From NCBI GenBank assembly GCA_028711165.1, contig JAQTST010000001.1, forward strand, positions 454,558-478,557: a stretch of DNA of 24,000 nt, given 5' to 3'. A model generated the notes under the pieces. It saw only the letters and a program-made list of their open reading frames with translations. It made no database searches and was not told where the DNA came from. The number at the start of each line of letters is the position of its first letter. Position 1 is the stretch's first letter. This document shows, piece by piece, positions 13,524 through 24,000 of the stretch. The stretch comes from Candidatus Nanoarchaeia archaeon. GTDB lineage: Archaea; Nanobdellota; Nanobdellia; Pacearchaeales; GW2011-AR1. The translations under genes were made by a program, and so were the position numbers.

Positions 13524-14303
13524 ATGAAAAGAAAAAGAGAAATTATTTTGCTGGGTATTTTGATATTGCTGATGTTTGTTATAAATTACAGCTTTGTTGA
13601 TAATGCGGTTGTTGAATTTCTTGACGATTATGAAACAACGATTGTGGAAAGAGTTATCGACGGTGACACGATTGTCGTCGGGAATGACACCCATGTGAGA
13701 CTGCTGGGAATTAACACGCCTGAAAAAGGGGAGAAATATTACAATGAAGCGAAAAATTTTTTATCGATGGTAATTCTCAACAAGACAGTTGAATTAAGGT
13801 TTGGAAAAGAGAGATATGACAGATACGGAAGAGAACTTGCTTACGTGTTTTATAATGATGCAAATGTAAATCTGGAATTAGTCGACGAGGGCTATGCGAA
13901 TTTTTATTTTCCGTCGGGAAAAGATGAATATTATGACAGGGCTGTAAAAAATTGGGAGCACTGCATTTCAAATAACAAATATCTCTGCGAAAAATCCGAC
14001 GACAAATGTGCTGACTGCGTTGAGTTGGAAGAATTTGAAAATCAGGAAGTTATCTTCGGAAATAATTGCAATTTTGAATGTGATTTAACCGGCTGGAGCA
14101 TTAAAGATGAAGGGAGGAAGAAATTTATTTTTGGGGATTTTGTTCTTGAAAAAAATAAAGAAGTGAAAATCATCGTCGGCAACAAGACAAACAGCAACGG
14201 CATTTTGTACTGGAAGAATGAAGATTATGTCTGGACAGAAACAGGAGACACTTTATTTTTGCGAGATAAAGGGGGGAAGCTGGTTTTGTGGAAGAAATAT
14301 TAG
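13524..14303 (+). CDS. Membrane-anchored extracellular thermonuclease (SNase fold) fused to a lamin-tail-like domain
   Basis: N-terminal TM anchor. SNase motifs VIDGDTIVV, VRLLGINTPE, YDRYGRELAYVF and NLELVDEGYA. The C-terminal part CDLTGWSIKDEGRKKFIFGDFVLEKNKEVKIIVG resembles the LTD domain. Confidence 0.8.
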   Translation: MKRKREIILLGILILLMFVINYSFVDNAVVEFLDDYETTIVERVIDGDTIVVGNDTHVRLLGINTPEKGEKYYNEAKNFLSMVILNKTVELRFGKERYDRYGRELAYVFYNDANVNLELVDEGYANFYFPSGKDEYYDRAVKNWEHCISNNKYLCEKSDDKCADCVELEEFENQEVIFGNNCNFECDLTGWSIKDEGRKKFIFGDFVLEKNKEVKIIVGNKTNSNGILYWKNEDYVWTETGDTLFLRDKGGKLVLWKKY

Positions 14304-14342
14304 CACAATAAAACTAATAAACTTCAAACGTTTAGAGAGATA

Positions 14343-14633
14343 ATGAGAAAATTAATCTCTCTCGTCGGAGGATTGGTATTTTTAACGAGCCCATTGTTTT
14401 CTCAGGAAATAAAACCTGCAGAAGACCCATATAAATTTATCCCGAAGGGGACAGAATGCTATCATTTAGATATTGATGGGGATGGGAAAATAGAAATTTA
14501 CTGGTGGGACAAAAATGAAAATTTCGAGATGGAAGATGATGAAATTTTTATAGATTTGAACGGTGATGAAATTCCGGACTGCAATTATTCTGATTACAAA
14601 GAGTGGAAAAAATTATCCGAAACTCTTGCTTAG
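14343..14633 (+). CDS. Small secreted protein with two DxDxDG-type Ca2+-binding loops (EF-hand- or dockerin-like)
   Basis: Signal peptide LVFLTSPLFSQ. Loops DIDGDGKIE and DLNGDEIPD lie about 28 residues apart. Confidence 0.55.
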   Translation: MRKLISLVGGLVFLTSPLFSQEIKPAEDPYKFIPKGTECYHLDIDGDGKIEIYWWDKNENFEMEDDEIFIDLNGDEIPDCNYSDYKEWKKLSETLA

Positions 14634-14817
14634 TGATTGTAAATATATTTATCAATCATAATAATGCTTTTAAATAAAAACCTTAATTATATTTTATGGG
14701 TGCTAAAAAGGGTACAATTTTCTATTTACAATTTCATGGTTATACGTGTAACAATATCGATATAACAAATCTGTTTCGCAGAAGATTTGAAATACAGATG
14801 AAAGGAGGTTTAAAAAA

Positions 14818-16209
14818 ATGAGAAAAAATATTTTAGGTATTTTAGCATTCGTAATGGCTTTCGTCATGATTGGTGGAGTTAGTGCTACTATTGCAGATGG
14901 TGTTGTATTTACTTCACCCGCATTAAGTAGTTATGTTCATAGTACAATAAATGTGCAGTGGACAAATGTACATAGTTATCCAACTTTAACTTTGCAATAT
15001 GTTCAAGGAGAATGTAATGCAAGCGAAGGATGGACAAGTATTGGTTCTGAAAATATGCCTTCAACCAAATTAAGTTCCTCTTGGAATACTGCAGGATTAG
15101 ATGATGGAAACTATTGTTTGAGACTTCAAACTGCTAGCCTTCTAACTGAAGATTCTGTGGCAGTAACTGTAGATAATGAAAAACCTATTGCAAAAATTGC
15201 AGTAACTGGAAATAAAATTCAATACGAAAAATTGAACTTTTATGGAAATGGTTCTACAGATAATAATGGAATTGCAAGTTACTTATGGGAATTTGGTGAT
15301 GGAAGTACAAGTACTGAGATGAATCCAACTCACTCTTATTTAGTAGTAGATGATTATACTGTTAAACTAACAGTAACTGATTCAGCAGGAAACAAAGATT
15401 CTGCAACAAAGTCTATTACTATAGCAGATATTCCTTATGAAGAACCAAGCACAGTTTTTGAAGCTGGAATAAGAGAAATGTTAGACTTACACAGTTCAAT
15501 TGATACTGGTTTAACAGGAACAATAGAATGTAGTGTATTGCCTTCTAGTCTTCCTATAGACGGACTCGTCTTAGGTGAATCTGGAAGCAATTGTACTTTT
15601 GACTGGACAAATATTCCTTATTCTTACCGAGGATTGCATGAATTATCTATAAGGGTAAGTAGCACTGAAGCTGCTACACCAAAGTACTTCAAGGTAGACA
15701 TAACAGTTTACACTTGGATGGCTCCTCTTGTTGTAACAAATGAGAACTACGGATGGAATATGTTTTCAATTCCAATGATGCCTGCAGATACTGACAGCGA
15801 TTCTGTATTAGCTAATATAAAAGATAATATGGATAGCGATAATGTATGGCAATATGATGCAACTGCACAGAAATGGAAGAAGACAACAAAGATTGTTCCA
15901 GGATATGCATACAGAGTAAAGATGAAAGCTACTGACACTTTGAAAGGTTTCGGAAACATTGAAGGAAGTCAGGTTCCAGTTGTAAATGGCTGGAATGCTA
16001 TTGGACATTACGGAATTAATTCTGTATCAATAGATGATGCTTTGACAAGTTTAACTTTGGGAGATGTTAAGTTCTATGATAGTATTCTATCAAGCAGCTC
16101 AACATTCGATGCTTATCAAGGTTATTTCTTAACTGCTAAATTCCTGCCAGATACATCTGAACTTTACACTCCATCACAGAGTGTTATAAATTATATCTTG
16201 GCAGATTAA
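14818..16209 (+). CDS. Secreted surface protein with a PKD domain (463 aa)
   Basis: Strong AGGAGG Shine-Dalgarno motif and a signal peptide. Canonical PKD core YLWEFGDGSTSTEMNPTHSYLVVDDYTVKLTVTDSAGNKDSATKSITI. Ig-like N-terminal domain. The C-terminal GWNMFSIP...PGYAYRVK module is of a kind common in surface proteins. Confidence 0.8.
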   Translation: MRKNILGILAFVMAFVMIGGVSATIADGVVFTSPALSSYVHSTINVQWTNVHSYPTLTLQYVQGECNASEGWTSIGSENMPSTKLSSSWNTAGLDDGNYCLRLQTASLLTEDSVAVTVDNEKPIAKIAVTGNKIQYEKLNFYGNGSTDNNGIASYLWEFGDGSTSTEMNPTHSYLVVDDYTVKLTVTDSAGNKDSATKSITIADIPYEEPSTVFEAGIREMLDLHSSIDTGLTGTIECSVLPSSLPIDGLVLGESGSNCTFDWTNIPYSYRGLHELSIRVSSTEAATPKYFKVDITVYTWMAPLVVTNENYGWNMFSIPMMPADTDSDSVLANIKDNMDSDNVWQYDATAQKWKKTTKIVPGYAYRVKMKATDTLKGFGNIEGSQVPVVNGWNAIGHYGINSVSIDDALTSLTLGDVKFYDSILSSSSTFDAYQGYFLTAKFLPDTSELYTPSQSVINYILAD

Positions 16210-16210
16210 G

Positions 16211-16256
16211 TTCAATTTTAATTTTTTATTTTTCTTTTTCTTTCTTTTTTATTTTA
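16211..16256 (+). terminator. Oligo-T-rich putative archaeal terminator
   Basis: Several T5-T8 runs (TTTTTTATTTTTCTTTTTCTTTCTTTTTTATTTT) lie immediately after the stop codon. Confidence 0.45.
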
Positions 16257-16346
16257 CCGTCAGTACTGGATAGTTTTTATTAATATATCACAAAGATATT
16301 TATTGAGAATAATAATGCTTTTAAACAGAAACGAGAATTAAGTGAT

Positions 16347-17225
16347 ATGAAAAAAGTTGGATTGTTTATTTTTACCTTGATATTTCTTAGTTCATTTGTC
16401 CTTGCAGCAAATTGTGCTCCAAATAATCTTCCGAAAATTTATTCTGGAACAGTTTCATATAATGATGAAAGTTTAACAGGAACTTATGAAATAAGAGCTT
16501 CGATGAGTAATGAAGTTATTGGGATTGGAGAAGTAATTGATGGAGAATATTCTATTGAAGTTACTCCTTGTTTTAATGGAGCTTTTTCATTTTACATTGG
16601 GGGAGTAAAAGCAAATGAACAAGGTTCTTATGCGGGAATTTCTGACTGGGATGTAGAAAAGAATTTAGACTTAACAATAAACTCACAACCATTTGCAACT
16701 TGCGGCAATAATATTGTTGAGCCAAGTGAGGAATGTGAGGGAACAAATTTTGATGGCAGAAGTCCAAGTGACTGTGGAACAAACTGGCAGGGAACAATTT
16801 CATGTACTTCTTCTTGTACTATAAGTTATTCAAATTGTGTTTATAACCCGCCATCTAGTGGCGGTTCATCAGGAGGAAGTTCTTCTGGTGGAGGCTCTGG
16901 CGGTGGTGGAGGAGGCGGAGGTGGCGGCGGAAGCATTAGCCATTCAACTTCAACATCGTCGTCGAAGAATACAAATAATACTCCAATAGTTTTGGAAAAT
17001 AAAACAGAAACAGAATCAAAAAGCAATTCACCATTAACAGGATTTGCGATATCTGATTTTATGACATCGGGAAATGTAATTTATGCAATTATCGGGGGAA
17101 TAACACTTCTTGTTTTGGGAGTTACAGTTATAGTTGCAAGAAAGAAAAAGCCTGTTGAAAGTGTTGAAAATAAAACAGAAAATTCTGAGAAAAAAGAAGA
17201 AGATAACGACGACGGCAAGGCTTAA
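16347..17225 (+). CDS. Surface protein with signal peptide, Cys-rich repeat, Gly/Ser linker, and a C-terminal SPLTG + TM + RKKK sorting-signal-like tail
   Basis: CGNNIVEPSEECEGTNFDG resembles the CGDG...EECD cysteine-rich repeat family. There is a run of 11 Gly within an S/G linker. The C-terminus reads SPLTGFAISDF...IIGGITLLVLGVTVIVARKKKP followed by an acidic tail. Confidence 0.75.
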   Translation: MKKVGLFIFTLIFLSSFVLAANCAPNNLPKIYSGTVSYNDESLTGTYEIRASMSNEVIGIGEVIDGEYSIEVTPCFNGAFSFYIGGVKANEQGSYAGISDWDVEKNLDLTINSQPFATCGNNIVEPSEECEGTNFDGRSPSDCGTNWQGTISCTSSCTISYSNCVYNPPSSGGSSGGSSSGGGSGGGGGGGGGGGSISHSTSTSSSKNTNNTPIVLENKTETESKSNSPLTGFAISDFMTSGNVIYAIIGGITLLVLGVTVIVARKKKPVESVENKTENSEKKEEDNDDGKA

Positions 17226-18010: not shown

Positions 18011-20626
18011 ATGTGGCACAGCCTTGATAAGAAAGAGGTTCTTGAAAAGTTAAAGACGAGCGAGAATGGACTTAGCGATGAGGAAGCTCTGAAGAGACTG
18101 AAAGAATACGGGAAGAACGAACTGAAACAGATTCACAAAATAAATCCTTTTTTTATTTTTCTTTCACAATTTAAATCTGTTTTTATATTAATTTTATTTG
18201 CTGCTGCGATTTTTTCTTTTTTTATCGAGCATTATATTGATTTTGGAGTTATAATGGCTATAATAGTTCTAAATTCCACGATAGGATTTTTCCAGCAATA
18301 CAAGGCAGAGAAAATAATTGCAAAAATGAAAGAGTTCATTGTTCCGAAAGTTAAAGTTTTGCGAAATGGTAAATTATCTGAAGTTTTATCGTCGGAGATT
18401 GTTCCCGGGGACATTATAGTTATTTCAGAAGGAGACAAGATAACTGCTGACTGCAGAATTCTCTATGTAAATGAATTGCAGGCAAATGAGGCTGTTCTTA
18501 CAGGAGAAAGTTTTCCTCAGGACAAATCTTCTGAAAAATTATTATTGAAAGTTCAGCTTGCTGACAGAGAAAATATGCTTTATGCAGGAACAACAATTGT
18601 GAGGGGAAATGCAAAAGCAGTTGTCGTCTCGACGGGAATGAGAACAGAATTTGGAAATATTGCTGAAAAAGTTCAGACAATAAAACAGAAAAAAACTCCG
18701 CTTGAAATAAAACTGGATGCTTTCTCAAAAAGAATTGCTGCAATTGTTTTGATTATAACAATTTTAATTGTAATTGCAGGGATATACAACGGGGAGGAAA
18801 TTTTCCAGATGATTCTCGCGGGAATTGTCCTTGCAGTGAGCGTTATCCCCGAAGGACTGCCGGCAGTAATTTCTATAACACTTGCATTTGCAATCAAGCG
18901 AATGCAAAAGTATAATGCATTAATCAGAAAACTGCCTGCAGGAGAAACCCTCGGAAGAACAACTGTAATCTGCACAGACAAAACAGGAACACTGACAGAA
19001 GAAGAAATGTTTGTGACAACAACATACTGCAATAATAATTTTTTTAAGATTGAAGACCATTCTTTTTATCTTGACGGCAGGAAAACTTCCCCCGAGAAAA
19101 ATAAAGAATTATTAGAATTGTTAAGGGCAGGAATAATGTGCAACAATGCCAGGCTGGAAATGAAAGGAAGAAAAATAGAAATCTTTGGAGATCCGACGGA
19201 AAAAGCTCTTGTAATGTCGGCATATAATTCCGGATTTGTCAAGAAAACAGAACTTGAAAAAGAGAAAAGAGTGAAAGAATATTCTTTTTCTTCCAGCAGA
19301 AAAATGATGTCAATCATAAGAAAAAGAAATGGGGAATTTGTCAGTTATGTGAAAGGCGCTCCTGATATAATTTTAAAAAAATGCTCAAAAGAATTAGTTA
19401 ACGGAAAATTTGTGAATCTAACTTCGGACAGAAAAAAAGAACTTCTGAATGTTTATTCCAAAATGGCTTCTGATGCACTGAGAGTTTTGGGATTTGCATA
19501 CAAAGAAATTACTGCAAGATTTAATCAGGAAACTGCAGAGAGTGATTTGATATTTTTGGGATTTCAGGGAATGCTTGATATTCCGAGAAAAGAAGTCAAG
19601 GATGCAATCAGAGACTGCAGGAATGCGGGAATAAAAGTCAAAATGCTTACAGGAGATTCTGAAATCACAGCGAAGGCAATTTCAAAAATGATTAATCTTC
19701 AGGGAGAATCAATCGAAGGAGTTGAACTCGAGAAACTTTCTGACAAGGACTTTGGCGAAGCAGTTCAGAAGATTACTATTTTTGCAAGGATAACTCCTGA
19801 AATTAAACTCAGAATAATCAGGACACTCAGAGAACAGAGGGAAATAGTTGCTGTTACTGGCGACGGAGTCAATGATATTCTCGCTCTCAAAGAAGCACAC
19901 ATAGGAATTGCGATGGGAATCAGAGGAACAGATATGGCAAGAGATGTCTCAGATATTATTCTTCTCGACGACAATTTCAGCACAATAGTGCACGCAATAC
20001 GCGAGGGCAGGAGAGTTTATGACAACATGAAAAAATCAATCAAGCTTCATTTATCTGCAAATATCGATGAACTATTTGTTGTCATTGCTGCAATTTTATT
20101 TGCGATGCCTTTGCCTTTTCTTCCTCTTGCAATTCTCTGGATGAACTTAATCACAGATTCACTTCCAAGTCTTGCGCTTGCCGTCGAGAAAGAAGAAGAT
20201 AACATTATGAAGAGAGGGCCGATAAATCACAGCAATAATATTCTCAATGGAGTTTTAAAGTTTGTTCTTATCGCAGGATTTATTTCATTCCTTGCAACAA
20301 TAATTTTATTTATAATTTATCAGGCAGATTTGGAGAAAGCAAGGACGATGGCGCTCACTGTCTCTGTGTTCTGTGAATTATTCATTGCACTTGCCTGCCG
20401 TTCTGATACCAAGAACATATGGAAAGTTGGATTGTTCAGCAATAAATTTATGCTGTTTTCTATAATTGCTGCGGGAGCATTGCAAATCATTGCAGTCTAT
20501 ACACCTCTCGCCGGATTCTTTGGATTAAAGGCAATTTCTGCCGGAGAATTATTAATTGCAGTAGCAGCATCTTCGCTGGGATTTATCTTCTTTGAAATAA
20601 TGAAATTCTTCAAGATAAAAATATAA
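18011..20626 (+). CDS. P-type ATPase, P2 (Ca2+-ATPase-like) cation pump
   Basis: Cation_ATPase_N-type start (LSDEEALKRLKEYGKNEL), TGES, PEGLPAV in M4, the phosphorylation site ICTDKTGTLT, KGAPD, MLTGD and VTGDGVNDILALKEAHIGIAMG. About 10 TM helices. Confidence 0.95.
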   Translation: MWHSLDKKEVLEKLKTSENGLSDEEALKRLKEYGKNELKQIHKINPFFIFLSQFKSVFILILFAAAIFSFFIEHYIDFGVIMAIIVLNSTIGFFQQYKAEKIIAKMKEFIVPKVKVLRNGKLSEVLSSEIVPGDIIVISEGDKITADCRILYVNELQANEAVLTGESFPQDKSSEKLLLKVQLADRENMLYAGTTIVRGNAKAVVVSTGMRTEFGNIAEKVQTIKQKKTPLEIKLDAFSKRIAAIVLIITILIVIAGIYNGEEIFQMILAGIVLAVSVIPEGLPAVISITLAFAIKRMQKYNALIRKLPAGETLGRTTVICTDKTGTLTEEEMFVTTTYCNNNFFKIEDHSFYLDGRKTSPEKNKELLELLRAGIMCNNARLEMKGRKIEIFGDPTEKALVMSAYNSGFVKKTELEKEKRVKEYSFSSSRKMMSIIRKRNGEFVSYVKGAPDIILKKCSKELVNGKFVNLTSDRKKELLNVYSKMASDALRVLGFAYKEITARFNQETAESDLIFLGFQGMLDIPRKEVKDAIRDCRNAGIKVKMLTGDSEITAKAISKMINLQGESIEGVELEKLSDKDFGEAVQKITIFARITPEIKLRIIRTLREQREIVAVTGDGVNDILALKEAHIGIAMGIRGTDMARDVSDIILLDDNFSTIVHAIREGRRVYDNMKKSIKLHLSANIDELFVVIAAILFAMPLPFLPLAILWMNLITDSLPSLALAVEKEEDNIMKRGPINHSNNILNGVLKFVLIAGFISFLATIILFIIYQADLEKARTMALTVSVFCELFIALACRSDTKNIWKVGLFSNKFMLFSIIAAGALQIIAVYTPLAGFFGLKAISAGELLIAVAASSLGFIFFEIMKFFKIKI

Positions 20627-20666: not shown

Positions 20667-21257
20667 ATGAAAAAAAGGGTAGATAAGCATGGACAATTTT
20701 TTCTCATCGCTGCTGTTATTATAATTGCAGTAATTGTAAGCATCGTAACGATAACGAATTATACGCAAAAAAGAGATGTTGTAAGACTTTATGATTTGGG
20801 AGAAGAATTAGGAATTGAAAGCCAACAGGTTTTGGATTACGGAACATACAGCGAATTAAACGAAGAAGAAATGAAAGGTTTGATAGAAAATTTTATTAAT
20901 AATTATGTAAGCTATATCGAGGACGACAAGAATATTTATTTTGTATTCGGAAATAAAGACAAGGTTAATGTTGTAGGATATCAGGATATTCAAAAAGAAG
21001 AAGTTCTTGTCTGCCTTAAGATTGCAGGTGCAGTAGAAGATATTAAGATTACCGGAGAGGACGATTGTGACCCTTATCTTACTATCGGAGAAACACAGCA
21101 GTTCACAGAAAAAAATCTCCAGGAGATAGATAAAGTAGAAGTTAAAATTGGGGGAATAGGATATGAGTTCCCATTAAATTATGGAGAAAATTTCTATTTT
21201 GTAATCTGGCAGGAAATCGGCGGGGAGAAACATGTTGTCACAAGCTCTTCGGGATAA
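20667..21257 (+). CDS. Pilin-like protein 1 (class III signal-peptide-like N-terminus)
   Basis: MKKRVDKHGQ followed by FFLIAAVIIIAVIVSIVTI, i.e. a basic stretch, then Gly, then about 20 hydrophobic residues. First gene of a same-strand cluster with overlapping junctions. Confidence 0.6.
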   Translation: MKKRVDKHGQFFLIAAVIIIAVIVSIVTITNYTQKRDVVRLYDLGEELGIESQQVLDYGTYSELNEEEMKGLIENFINNYVSYIEDDKNIYFVFGNKDKVNVVGYQDIQKEEVLVCLKIAGAVEDIKITGEDDCDPYLTIGETQQFTEKNLQEIDKVEVKIGGIGYEFPLNYGENFYFVIWQEIGGEKHVVTSSSG

Positions 21258-21798
21258 GCGAGGACTTAGTTTAGTCATAGGATATATTTTGCTGATAGCT
21301 ATTTCAGTAGTTATGAGTGTTATCGTCTACCAATGGCTGAGAACTTATGTTCCGACGGAATCTGTCGAATGCGACGAAGGAGTTTCTATTTTTATCAACG
21401 ACGTTTCTTACGATTGCACTGCAGGAAATCTTGAAGTGACGACGAGAAATAATGGAAAGTTCAGCGTGAATGGATATTTCATCCGTGCTTCAAATAACAG
21501 CGAGGGATTAGCGACGATTGATCTTTCTCTAAATATTCTCGGAGGATACGGCGGGAGTATTTATGGAAATACAAATTCAATCTCCTTTTCAAATGAAACC
21601 TGTGTTTCAGACTGCGAGAATTCTCTTACTCCGACGGTTTCAAGCAATGTTAAAAGTTTGACATTTAATGTTTCGAGCTACGGAGGAAATCTTGTCAAAA
21701 TTGAGATAATTCCGACGAGGATTCAGGAAATTGACAATAAAAAAAGGCTCGTGAGCTGCGGCGGTGCAAAGATTGAAGAAACACTGGTGTGCGAATAA
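21232..21798 (+). CDS. Archaeal type IV pilin-like protein 2
   Basis: RDKRGLSLVIGYILLIAISVVMSVIVYQWL matches the archaeal pilin/archaellin N-terminal pattern (K/R-G-[LV]-S then hydrophobic). It overlaps the upstream gene by 26 nt. Confidence 0.7.
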   Translation: MLSQALRDKRGLSLVIGYILLIAISVVMSVIVYQWLRTYVPTESVECDEGVSIFINDVSYDCTAGNLEVTTRNNGKFSVNGYFIRASNNSEGLATIDLSLNILGGYGGSIYGNTNSISFSNETCVSDCENSLTPTVSSNVKSLTFNVSSYGGNLVKIEIIPTRIQEIDNKKRLVSCGGAKIEETLVCE

Positions 21799-21831
21799 TT
21801 TAAAAATAATAAAAATGTATTATAATAAAAG

Positions 21832-22314
21832 ATGGTAAAGAAATTCAGGATAAAAAATAAGAGGGGGCTTTCTCCGGTAATTACAACGGTGTTATTAATT
21901 GCACTTGTAGTTGTAAGCACGTCGATAGTTTTTTTATGGTTCCGTGGAATGGTTGAAGAAGGAGTTACAAAATTCGGGAAAAATATAAAGCTCGTCTGCG
22001 ACGATGTTGATTTCAAAGCAGAATATAATGCAGGAACATTAAGCGTCGTAAATAATGGAAACATTCCGATATATAATTTGAATTTAAGAATATCCAGCGG
22101 AGGAAATTTCGAGACAAGAGAGATATCAGAAATTTCCGGAGTAGATTGGCCTGAAACAGGATTGGCACAGGGAGGTTCTTTTGCGGGAAATATTGCGGGA
22201 GAAGTTGGAAGTGCAAGTGAGATGATAGTATCCCCAATCTTAGTGGGAACATCAAGCAGCGGTCAAAAAACTTATATATGCGGGGGGCAATATGGTAAAG
22301 AGCTTCCTGTATAA
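21832..22314 (+). CDS. Archaeal type IV pilin-like protein 3
   Basis: NKRGLSPVITTVLLIALVVVSTSIVFLWF is a textbook archaeal pilin N-terminal domain. It is followed by a beta-rich globular part. Confidence 0.8.
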   Translation: MVKKFRIKNKRGLSPVITTVLLIALVVVSTSIVFLWFRGMVEEGVTKFGKNIKLVCDDVDFKAEYNAGTLSVVNNGNIPIYNLNLRISSGGNFETREISEISGVDWPETGLAQGGSFAGNIAGEVGSASEMIVSPILVGTSSSGQKTYICGGQYGKELPV

Positions 22315-23608
22315 AAATAAAAAGGGTTTATCGACGATTATTATAACTTTGATTTTAATTCTTGTCTCGTTAGTTGCAATTGGAATTTTTTGGGTTGTTA
22401 TAAACAATTTAATAAAAAGCGGGACAGAAGGTATTGGTCTGGGGAGATTGACACTTAATGCAGAAATTAAAAGTGTCAGCATCGATAACTCATCAAATAA
22501 TGTTACTTTAACTGTAGAAAGAAAAGTTGGAGCAGGAGAGATGACAGGAATCAAATTTATTTTTTACAGCGATACTGATACAGAAATAATTACTGAAGAT
22601 ATTGAACTCGAACAATTAAAAGAAGCACAGTTTACTTTTCATTTGTTAATGAACGTCGGTGATATAACAAAGATTTCAATTGCACCAATTTTCAGTTCCA
22701 GCGAGGGTGAAGAAAGTGTTGGAAATGTTCTTGATACTTATAATGTTGAAGAACAACCTCCTGTTCCACCGTGTGTGCCTGCTATTAATCCTTGCGGAAC
22801 AAGAGTTTGCGGAAGTGTTACAAACGGAACTTGCGGAAGCATCAGCTGCGGAACCTGTACAGGAGGACAGGAATGTAATTCAACAGGGCAATGTTCTACT
22901 CCTTGTGTCCCATCATCATGCGGTTTATTAGGTTATGAATGCGGAGGACCTTACAACAACGGAACTTGTTTTGGAACATTTAGTTGCGGAGGTTGTATGG
23001 GGGAAGATGTATGTATTGCAGGACATTGTCAACTGAATATAACTCCAATCTTGTGGTATAAGTTCGACGGTAATTTATTAGATTCGGGAGTCGCGCCGGC
23101 AATGGATGGTGCCTGGACAAATGGAACAGGAACTTTTGTAACTGGTTTCAGCGGACAAGCAGCAGATTTTGCAGGGGTTAATGGAATAACAGGAAATGTA
23201 GGTTCTAAAATTGGAAATTTATCTCAAATGACAATTTCAGTTTATGCAAAGAAAAATGTGGCTAGTCAGGGAGGAGATTTATTCTACAAACATGTTCAGT
23301 ATAGAATTATAATCTCCCAGAATTATGTAACTGGTCAAATTTATATCGGAGGAAATGTCACAGAGGTTGCTGGAATAGCAAATATAGATAATACTAACTG
23401 GCATCAATATACCTTGAATTATAACGGTACAGCATTAAAAATTTATGTTGATGGAACTGAGATTGATTCAGAAATTGCAACGGGGAATGTTGATGATTCT
23501 CAATGGCAGGAGCTTTTAATTGGAAATCAGCCGATTGCATGGAGCGGAACATATTTCAACGGGCAGGTTGATGAGTTTAAAATTTATAACAGATCCATAA
23601 CGTCATAA
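22292..23608 (+). CDS. Pilin-like N-terminus fused to two Cys-rich repeats and a C-terminal LamG/concanavalin-like lectin domain (438 aa); putative pilus adhesin
   Basis: NKKGLSTIIITLILILVSLVAIGIFWVV is the pilin-type N-terminus. Two Cys-rich repeats of about 45 aa each (PCVPAINPCGTRVCG...GQC and PCVPSSCGLLGYECGG...GHCQ). LamG_3-like pattern: LWYKFDGNLLDSG...MTISVYAK...WHQYTLNYNGTALKIYVDG...FNGQVDEFKIYNRS. It overlaps the upstream gene by 23 nt. Confidence 0.8.
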   Translation: MVKSFLYKNKKGLSTIIITLILILVSLVAIGIFWVVINNLIKSGTEGIGLGRLTLNAEIKSVSIDNSSNNVTLTVERKVGAGEMTGIKFIFYSDTDTEIITEDIELEQLKEAQFTFHLLMNVGDITKISIAPIFSSSEGEESVGNVLDTYNVEEQPPVPPCVPAINPCGTRVCGSVTNGTCGSISCGTCTGGQECNSTGQCSTPCVPSSCGLLGYECGGPYNNGTCFGTFSCGGCMGEDVCIAGHCQLNITPILWYKFDGNLLDSGVAPAMDGAWTNGTGTFVTGFSGQAADFAGVNGITGNVGSKIGNLSQMTISVYAKKNVASQGGDLFYKHVQYRIIISQNYVTGQIYIGGNVTEVAGIANIDNTNWHQYTLNYNGTALKIYVDGTEIDSEIATGNVDDSQWQELLIGNQPIAWSGTYFNGQVDEFKIYNRSITS

Positions 23609-23654
23609 AAAATTATAAGATAAAATATAAAAACTCATTCTTATTATTTTAATA

Positions 23655-24000
23655 ATGAGTAATAAAAGAGGTTTATCGACGATTATCATAACGATGATTT
23701 TGATTCTTATTTCATTAGTCGCAATTGGAGTTTTCTGGGTTGTTGTAAATAATTTAATCAAAGGAGGAACAGAAGATATTAATTTGGGAAGATTAACTTT
23801 TAGTGCAGAGATTAATAGAGTTCTCGTCGATAATTCGTCAAATAATATGAGTATTTTAGTCAAGAGAAATTCTGGGGAAGGAAATGTTACCAAGATGAAA
23901 TTTATTTTTTACAGTGAAAATGATAATGAAATCATCACACAAGATATCAATCTTGAACAGTTCGCGCAAAAGAATTTTGTTTTCCATCTAGAAACAAACG
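23655..24000 (+). CDS. Partial CDS running off the right edge: pilin-like protein 5, a paralog of the N-terminal ~115 aa of the 22292 gene
   Basis: My translation from ATG 23655 is MSNKRGLSTIIITMILILISLVAIGVFWVVVNNLIKGGTEDINLGRLTFSAEINRVLVDNSSNNMSILVKRNSGEGNVTKMKFIFYSENDNEIITQDINLEQFAQKNFVFHLETN, open to the window end. It is missing from the ORF track because it is open-ended. Confidence 0.75.
   Translation, partial: MSNKRGLSTIIITMILILISLVAIGVFWVVVNNLIKGGTEDINLGRLTFSAEINRVLVDNSSNNMSILVKRNSGEGNVTKMKFIFYSENDNEIITQDINLEQFAQKNFVFHLETN

Follow-up and report, generated by a model that had tools for sequence, protein, structure and literature searches.

What are five consecutive pilin-like genes doing in a stretch of archaeal DNA that holds no machinery for assembling a pilus? 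The stretch, hereafter the window, comprises 24,000 nucleotides (nt) from Candidatus Nanoarchaeia archaeon (contig JAQTST010000001.1), and the genes, here called g1 to g5, follow one another on the forward strand at its right end. Each encodes a basic segment, a glycine and about 20 hydrophobic residues, a pattern recognized as a class III (prepilin-type) signal in the initial annotation; the list of open reading frames (ORFs), the sequence and the N-termini quoted there all agree on it. The window itself contains no assembly ATPase, no platform protein and no A24 prepilin peptidase. The five genes nevertheless very probably form the pilin-encoding front of a 13-gene, 9.7-kb type IV pilus (filament) operon of a DPANN archaeon, whose remaining genes lie beyond the window.

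The downstream genes were read on a contig of 447 kb, JAQTLT010000001.1 (GCA_028714745.1, labeled Candidatus Nanoarchaeia archaeon by NCBI), identified by an exact match to the g4 sequence, in which the locus, L001, is identical to the window over their overlap; a window position equals the L001 position plus 12291. As the initial annotation had expected, the cluster runs on past the right edge, with the remainder of g5 and eight further operon genes. The complete operon consists of 13 same-strand genes in 9,697 nt, in the order g1-g2-g3-g4-g5-g6-g7-ATPase-s56-F1-F2-g8-g9, with gaps of −26 to 77 nt; the two junction overlaps noted earlier, 26 nt between g1 and g2 and 23 nt between g3 and g4, are present. 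The absence of assembly machinery, which holds for the window, arises because the window edge cuts the operon: the ATPase gene starts 1,222 nt past the edge and two T2SSF platform genes follow. An absence of this kind counts only after the flanking contig has been read. Extension of the contig, which had been proposed as a check, thus recovered a FlaI/GspE-type ATPase and a FlaJ-type platform but did not locate a prepilin peptidase.

The ATPase (515 residues, L001 12931-14478) belongs to the FlaI/GspE family. It matches T2SSE with an E-value of 2.2e-31, and its best curated family match is the NCBIfam FlaI model (382 bits, E 4.5e-114, cut-off 550). In comparisons with solved structures, afGspE from Archaeoglobus (2OAP) scored 373 bits, FlaI 265 and CpaF 149, and a match to PilB3_C was near threshold (25.5 bits, cut-off 27). 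The platform is encoded by two genes for half-size FlaJ/TadC-like proteins, F1 (431 residues, L001 14728-16023) and F2 (280 residues, L001 16025-16867), with one T2SSF domain each. F1 aligns to positions 44-249 of ArlJ/FlaJ and F2 to positions 197-454, that is, to the first and second halves, so that the platform, like TadB/TadC and EpdJ/EpdK, comes in two pieces. Between the ATPase and platform genes lies s56 (L001 14556-14726), which encodes a highly charged, probably cytoplasmic, coiled-coil-like protein of 56 residues without a family match; it is present in 61 of the 80 related loci described below and may act on the motor as a regulator or an adaptor.

A scan for the ATPase in species-representative genomes yielded these 80 loci (67-87% identity), many of them cut by contig ends and almost all labeled Pacearchaeota, Woesearchaeota or Nanoarchaeota. 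BLASTP against all ORFs of the loci found g7 in 78, g6 in 72, g3 in 67, g2 and F1 in 65 each, F2 in 61, g1 in 57, g8 in 54 and g9 in 50. Nearly every uncut locus shows the same 11-gene core, g1-g2-g3-g6-g7-ATPase-s56-F1-F2-g8-g9, and the placement of pilin genes beside ATPase and platform is kept across the 80 genomes. The locus is an ordinary, lineage-typical archaeal type IV filament system.

The class III-type N-terminus is found in all five window genes and in four further genes of the operon: g6 (L001 11839-12339, N-terminus MNKRGISTIVITV), g7 (L001 12378-12929, containing ..CKGQVWIETVIYTL), g8 (L001 16868-17608, containing ..KKSSHVGMIVSF) and g9 (L001 17614-18072, containing ..NNRGWIEIVEAF). 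We searched all six frames of the window and of the 9.6 kb downstream of it (33.6 kb in total) for [KRH][GA] near a start codon, followed by 20 residues with a mean hydropathy >2.0. The matches were g1 to g6, g9 and a single membrane segment inside a platform protein, with none in the 20 kb upstream. Since the scan finds the cluster almost exclusively, the pattern is local and is neither due to chance nor a by-product of composition.

Across all seven core families (51-78 loci each), position −3 is K, −2 is K or R and −1 is G, sometimes A, with mostly N or K at −4. The sequences that follow differ between families. With the glycine included, the mature N-terminus reads GQF[YF]L in the g1 family, where K-[RK]-G-Q-F-[YF]-L is kept in 54 related loci, and G[VIL]S..[IV]GY in the g2 family, where K-[KR]-[GA]-[VIL]-S is conserved. 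It is G[LIV]SPV[IV][AT]T in the g3 family, G[LVI]S in g6, GQ[VI]W[VI]ET in g7, GSHVG in g8 and GW[IV]xI[VI]EAF in g9. A shared basic-G motif in front of otherwise unrelated mature proteins is what would be expected of selection by a single class III signal peptidase of broad specificity. Further, pilin families of the locus have weak N-terminal matches to the haloarchaeal families DUF7266 and DUF7289.

All five window genes have many homologs. Among them g3 (21832-22314; 160 residues, ..NKRGLSPVITTVLLIA), with the N-terminus NKRG/LSPVITTVLLIA (the slash follows the residue at −1), is a canonical archaeal type IV pilin. It passes the arch_flag_Nterm model TIGR02537 (33.5 bits, cut-off 20) and scores 20 bits, under the cut-off of 25.2, against Pilin_N (PF07790). 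The profile of its family (54 sequences) matched an archaeal type IV pilin of Pyrobaculum calidifontis (8fk7_A) with an E-value of 1.1e-7. In the AlphaFold2 model (predicted local distance difference test, pLDDT, 84.8), a helix of 30 residues (15-44) is followed by a β-sandwich, and a Foldseek search with this model returned immunoglobulin (Ig) V-type domains, with 8fk7_A at rank 3. We regard g3 as one candidate for the major subunit.

The other window genes score under the cut-offs of both TIGR02537 and PF07790. Three of them, g2 (21232-21798; 188 residues, DKRG/LSLVIGYILL, ..DKRGLSLVIGYILLIA), the modular pilin g4 (22292-23608; 438 residues, ..NKKGLSTIIITLILIL) and its short paralog g5 (23655-24000, cut by the edge; MSNKRGLSTIIITMILIL), are tied to g3 by pairwise similarity only. 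In BLASTP, g2 and g3 are 30% identical over 125 residues (E 3e-11), and links among g2, g3, g4, g5 and g6 extend over 100-150 residues (g3-g4 5e-8, g5-g6 9e-11); these E-values, from a database of nine sequences with composition correction off, are indicative only. The N-terminus of g2 also matches the UpsA model weakly.

The first gene of the operon, g1 (20667-21257; 196 residues, MKKRVDKHGQFFLIAAVIII), encodes a pilin-like protein with Q at +1 of a class III-type N-terminus, KHG/QFFLIAAV. Its 259 homologs are unnamed, save for one JGI label, ‘UPF0333 family’. The AlphaFold2 model (pLDDT 75.6) comprises a membrane helix (9-32), a conserved low-confidence linker and a lineage-specific α/β domain, for which we found no fold match in PDB; matches in Pfam and NCBIfam were likewise lacking. 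For g7 and g9, the family profiles had no significant match in PDB or Pfam. Because such family and fold matches are missing, g1, g7, g8 and g9 are called pilin-like by N-terminus and context only. Some g1 orthologs (P0013, P0018, P0043 and others) are about 100 residues longer and contain a PF13948 Cys-rich repeat insert, which shows that even this core component takes inserted modules.

What makes the locus most interesting is that g4 and g5 are members of a large family of modular, cargo-bearing pilins. The g4 protein consists of a pilin module (residues 1-152, nt 22292-22747), a Cys-rich stalk (approximately residues 160-258, nt 22769-23065) and a C-terminal LamG/ConA-like lectin module (residues 310-437, nt 23219-23602; Laminin_G_3, E 2.6e-16), after which NCBI names it ‘LamG domain-containing protein’; it has 16 cysteines and 11 N-X-S/T sequons. 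The initial annotation had counted two large modular pilins, but g5 is not large: the full gene starts at 23655, not 23656, ends at the window equivalent of 24095 (L001 11804) and encodes 146 residues, the pilin module alone. With residues 9-152 of g4 it shares 65% identity as protein and 75% as DNA. In most relatives g4 is missing from the core operon, and both g4 and g5 are lineage-specific insertions between g3 and g6.

Modules of the g4 type occur in at least six proteins of this genome: g4, g5, P0242 (459 residues, with LamG), P0243 (689 residues), a neighbor of P0242 with 792 residues and P0257 (461 residues, with LamG; the contigs found for it span only about 2 kb). An exhaustive search found the module in 2,468 representative proteins at E ≤1e-3 and in 1,017 at E ≤1e-10, always N-terminal, in proteins of 94-2,538 residues. 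The C-terminal domains of 78 sampled members include LamG (13), right-handed β-helix (6), NosD-type β-helix (2), neurotoxin-type lectin (2) and phytase-like esterase (2), with single cases of apiosidase-like, GH130, peptidase C25, discoidin, PKD and arylesterase domains.

Three modular pilins of this genome (689, 459 and 792 residues) form a second cluster (L084 3717-5786, 10001-11380 and 11434-13812), which is adjoined by a surface protein of 3,258 residues with LamG and Big_13 domains (L084 13882 to the end of the locus). Within the window, genes for predicted secreted or surface proteins lie in a run upstream of the operon (13524-17225). They encode a nuclease with SNase and lamin-tail domains (SNase-LTD), a protein with a PKD domain, and a protein rich in Cys and Gly that is anchored to the membrane at its C-terminus and has the motif CGNNIVEP..C in common with the stalks of modular pilins.

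The data themselves show which genes are present, their homologies, the conservation of their order and their predicted folds; how the parts might work together we infer from the established biology of type IV filaments. The hydrophobic helix of each prepilin would insert into the membrane, and an A24 aspartyl prepilin peptidase, presumably encoded elsewhere in the genome, would cleave after K-[KR]-[GA]. The hexameric ATPase, acting via the F1 and F2 platform, would then lift mature subunits from the membrane and stack their N-terminal helices as the filament core. The shaft may be built from one small Ig-fold pilin, g3, g6 or g5, and the divergent families g1, g7, g8 and g9 might serve as minor pilins or as priming or base components. 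Modular pilins like g4 would be rare components of the filament, on which they would expose a lectin (in paralogs a hydrolase) that could bind surfaces or host cells.

Several observations weigh against the reading as a pilus operon. No prepilin peptidase was found in the window, in 10 kb on each side or in a second contig stretch of 28 kb (about 70 kb readable), nor, in the 80 related loci, among polytopic ORFs up to 10 kb away from the ATPase; this result covers the readable contig parts and the related loci, and we do not count it as evidence of absence. Beyond the N-terminus, g1, g7, g8 and g9 lack any match in Pfam, NCBIfam or PDB, and the E-values that connect the other pilins are of the indicative kind described above. 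In this genome, two leaders depart from the consensus, with H at −2 in g1 and S at −1 in g8. Finally, the reading names no single major pilin; g3, g5 and g6 are all candidates for the shaft.

Of the alternatives, the one that survives best is a short pseudopilus or bindosome-like apparatus that displays lectins and hydrolases to scavenge or attack polymers of the host envelope, in place of a long adhesive pilus. In other archaea, assembly of class III-signal proteins as a bindosome and ‘functionalised’ filament machineries have both been proposed, and the fusion of the g4 module to LamG, β-helix, apiosidase-like, GH130, esterase and peptidase C25 domains across its family, together with the at least six proteins of this genome that contain the module, would suit such a device. 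The bindosome models, however, score far under their cut-offs (BasE 215 against 1000, BasA and BasC about 11-14 bits, BasF 24 against 1300), no substrate-binding protein is found among the cargo domains, and small Ig-fold pilins, which are typical of filament shafts, are kept in the core operon. We therefore consider this alternative unlikely, while noting that it overlaps with a type IV pilus, since display by pilus and by pseudopilus share machinery.

A pilus for DNA uptake, of the competence type, could feed a nucleotide-auxotrophic symbiont, and the number and arrangement of the genes, with an ATPase, a platform, one major and several minor pilins, resemble those of bacterial Com pili. The secreted SNase-LTD nuclease (13524-14303), encoded 7 kb upstream, might also fit this picture; it lies outside the operon, however, and is not syntenic in relatives. 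As the locus further lacks a ComEC, ComEA or DprA-type gene, and the lectin and hydrolase cargo favors surface binding, we regard DNA uptake as very improbable.

Ordinary surface proteins with Sec signal anchors, clustered by chance and forming no filament, are an explanation to which we give hardly any credence. It could draw on the four of nine proteins without a match to a pilin family and on a FlaFind-like pattern that accepts g2, g4, g5 (RGLSTI) and g6 and rejects g1, g3, g7, g8 and g9. Since g3 is rejected even though it passes the curated model, we judged the pattern too strict and do not hold it against the rejected genes. Against mere Sec anchors stand the invariant basic-G directly before a hydrophobic helix of 20 or more residues in seven families from about 50-78 genomes, the strict co-location with a secretion ATPase and platform, and g3, which passes a pilin model and matches a solved pilin. 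Least credible of all is an archaellum (swimming motor) locus, as might be read from the FlaI model being the best curated match of the ATPase (4.5e-114) and from the JGI labels of g3 homologs (‘flagellin-like’ or ‘FlaG/FlaF family’), because the FlaI score of 382 lies below the equivalog cut-off of 550, the locus lacks FlaH, FlaF/G, FlaC/D/E and FlaX, its platform is split in two, and none of its proteins has a meaningful match to Arch_flagellin (PF01917).

The type IV pilus operon is thus the reading we retain, and with it the view of the initial annotation that these genes encode class III-signal proteins of an archaeal type IV pilus, here in a genome of DPANN type. That annotation had also held that the composition of the locus does not match the characterized Aap, Ups or Epd loci. 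This stands for Aap and Ups, and the archaellum is out as well, but a layout with many pilins, one ATPase and a two-gene platform has been described for Epd-like ‘system 1’, for clade 2 and for some archaeal 4A loci, which have been reported to include DPANN (PMC4858521; bioRxiv 10.64898/2026.04.22.720090).

The Epd pilus of Methanococcus maripaludis represents type IV filament ‘system 1’ (clade 1 of Makarova et al.), which a 2026 preprint reports in DPANN (bioRxiv 10.64898/2026.04.22.720090). Our locus resembles it in its many class III-signal proteins and minor pilins, its single ATPase and its two TadC-like platform genes; Q(+1) of g1 and g7 and E(+5) of g7 correspond to positions of the Epd-type signal QxSxExxxL (PF04021). 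It differs in having no EppA with nine transmembrane segments, as no polytopic peptidase-like ORF occurs in the operon or its flanks, here or in the 80 relatives, and in having, within the locus, neither a PF04021 match nor a pilin of about 70 residues without a globular domain, although such a pilin could be encoded elsewhere. Further, clade 1 ATPases have been described as the most divergent, whereas the ATPase here aligns very well with FlaI and afGspE, a contrast drawn from that description.

By its sequence, the ATPase looks closer to the euryarchaeal clade 2, or ‘system 2’, exemplified by Haloferax PilB3-PilC3 with PilA1-6 and by Archaeoglobus, since afGspE is its best solved relative and PilB3_C its near-threshold match. 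Several distinct pilin genes and adhesin-like large pilins are likewise shared with this group. According to Makarova et al., many loci of clade 2 contain a pair of tadC-like genes, and the clade includes a few nanoarchaea. In the 2026 preprint, system 2 is defined as having one platform gene and extended ATPases, unlike the two-gene platform here (bioRxiv 10.64898/2026.04.22.720090); some DPANN 4A loci have two platform genes.

The bacterial Tad/Flp pilus (CpaF, TadB, TadC) is similar in its platform of two T2SSF proteins and in an ATPase to which that of the locus is related (CpaF, 149 bits). We rejected membership in the Tad group, as the score on the TadA model is 139 (cut-off 373) and the pilins here are large and globular, not Flp-type peptides. 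The Aap, Ups and Bas systems of Sulfolobales were rejected as well (UpsA 31.8 against 130, UpsF 43.7 against 400, the Bas models likewise under their cut-offs).

At the level of single subunits, g3 resembles the pilin of the flagellar-like type IV pilus of P. calidifontis (8FK7): the two align over the full length of the g3 model and have the same build of helix and β-sandwich. The two come from different phyla, with 18% identity and a TM-score of 0.22-0.25, which is low because of the orientation of the helix. In Streptococcus sanguinis, PilB and PilC combine a pilin module with a functional C-terminal module, a lectin in PilC, and mediate adhesion via a type IV pilus (PMC8179133, PMC9934059). 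The g4 protein with its LamG/ConA-like lectin follows the same logic without a sequence relationship, the Streptococcus proteins being bacterial pilins, and its family is far larger and includes hydrolases.

That DPANN archaea possess type IV pili is already common knowledge: the pili are common in their genomes, and pili-like appendages have been imaged on ultrasmall episymbionts (PMC8561730, PMC7906910). The idea of host contact draws on a functional analogy to the episymbiotic Saccharibacteria of the Candidate Phyla Radiation, ultrasmall bacteria that bind their hosts by type IV pili (PMC9894109, PMC11623550), with the difference that their machinery is bacterial. By this analogy, a host-contact role for the present locus is plausible.

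Going further, we suggest, as something possible rather than probable, that one conserved filament machine with seven dedicated pilin-like families might serve Pacearchaeota-type DPANN to display modular pilins drawn from a very large and exchangeable repertoire. Lectins and envelope hydrolases would be carried on a pilin module of 150 residues with a Cys-rich stalk, g4 and g5 would be captured cassettes, and the repertoire would set the host range and the mode of envelope attack.

Experimental knowledge of how Pacearchaeota and Woesearchaeota attach to their partners is close to nil, and both are among the commonest uncultured archaea of groundwater and sediment. The locus provides a testable list of parts, namely a strictly conserved 11-gene core, a K-[KR]-[GA] leader and the candidate shaft pilins g3, g5 and g6, and the lectins and hydrolases fused to pilins are natural candidates for host recognition.

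On its upstream side, the pilin cluster borders on a P-type cation ATPase (18011-20626), the cation pump of the initial annotation. Only 5 of the 80 related loci have this gene in synteny, and it is a mere neighbor outside the pilus system. On the other side, archease and the RNA ligase RtcB come next after g9 (L001 18143-20042); in 31 to 42 of the 80 loci they likewise come right after the pilus genes, with no obvious functional link. Outside the pilin cluster, the window encodes housekeeping and surface proteins: besides the P-type ATPase, the PKD protein and the SNase-LTD nuclease, these are IleRS, ArgRS, a TrmB regulator, a D-aminoacyl-tRNA deacylase and a TP_methylase-family protein.

An Rfam search over the window found two tRNAs only. 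The region from about 1 to 1100 is poor in ORFs, with only overlapping, unconvincing ones, and slightly higher in G+C content; it may hold an unrecognized RNA gene, for which Rfam gave no match in positions 1-1150, even at a permissive threshold. A scan for sigma-70 promoters and terminators gave no excess over the shuffled expectation, with a model that is in any case inapplicable to archaea.

Two minor observations concern genes of bacterial character. At 1106-1702 on the reverse strand, this archaeal contig encodes a stand-alone GGDEF diguanylate cyclase domain protein of 197 residues (Pfam, E 1.8e-41). Bacterial type IV pili are often under the control of cyclic-di-GMP; to our knowledge, signaling by this nucleotide is not established in archaea. 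Outside the window, on the same contig, a gene for a 274-residue protein with sigma-70 regions 1.2, 2, 3 and 4 (L084 454-1278, equivalent to L085 6738-7562) lies a few kb from the archaeal ribosomal protein genes L7Ae, S28e and L24e, and a bacterial-type sigma factor is unexpected in an archaeal genome.

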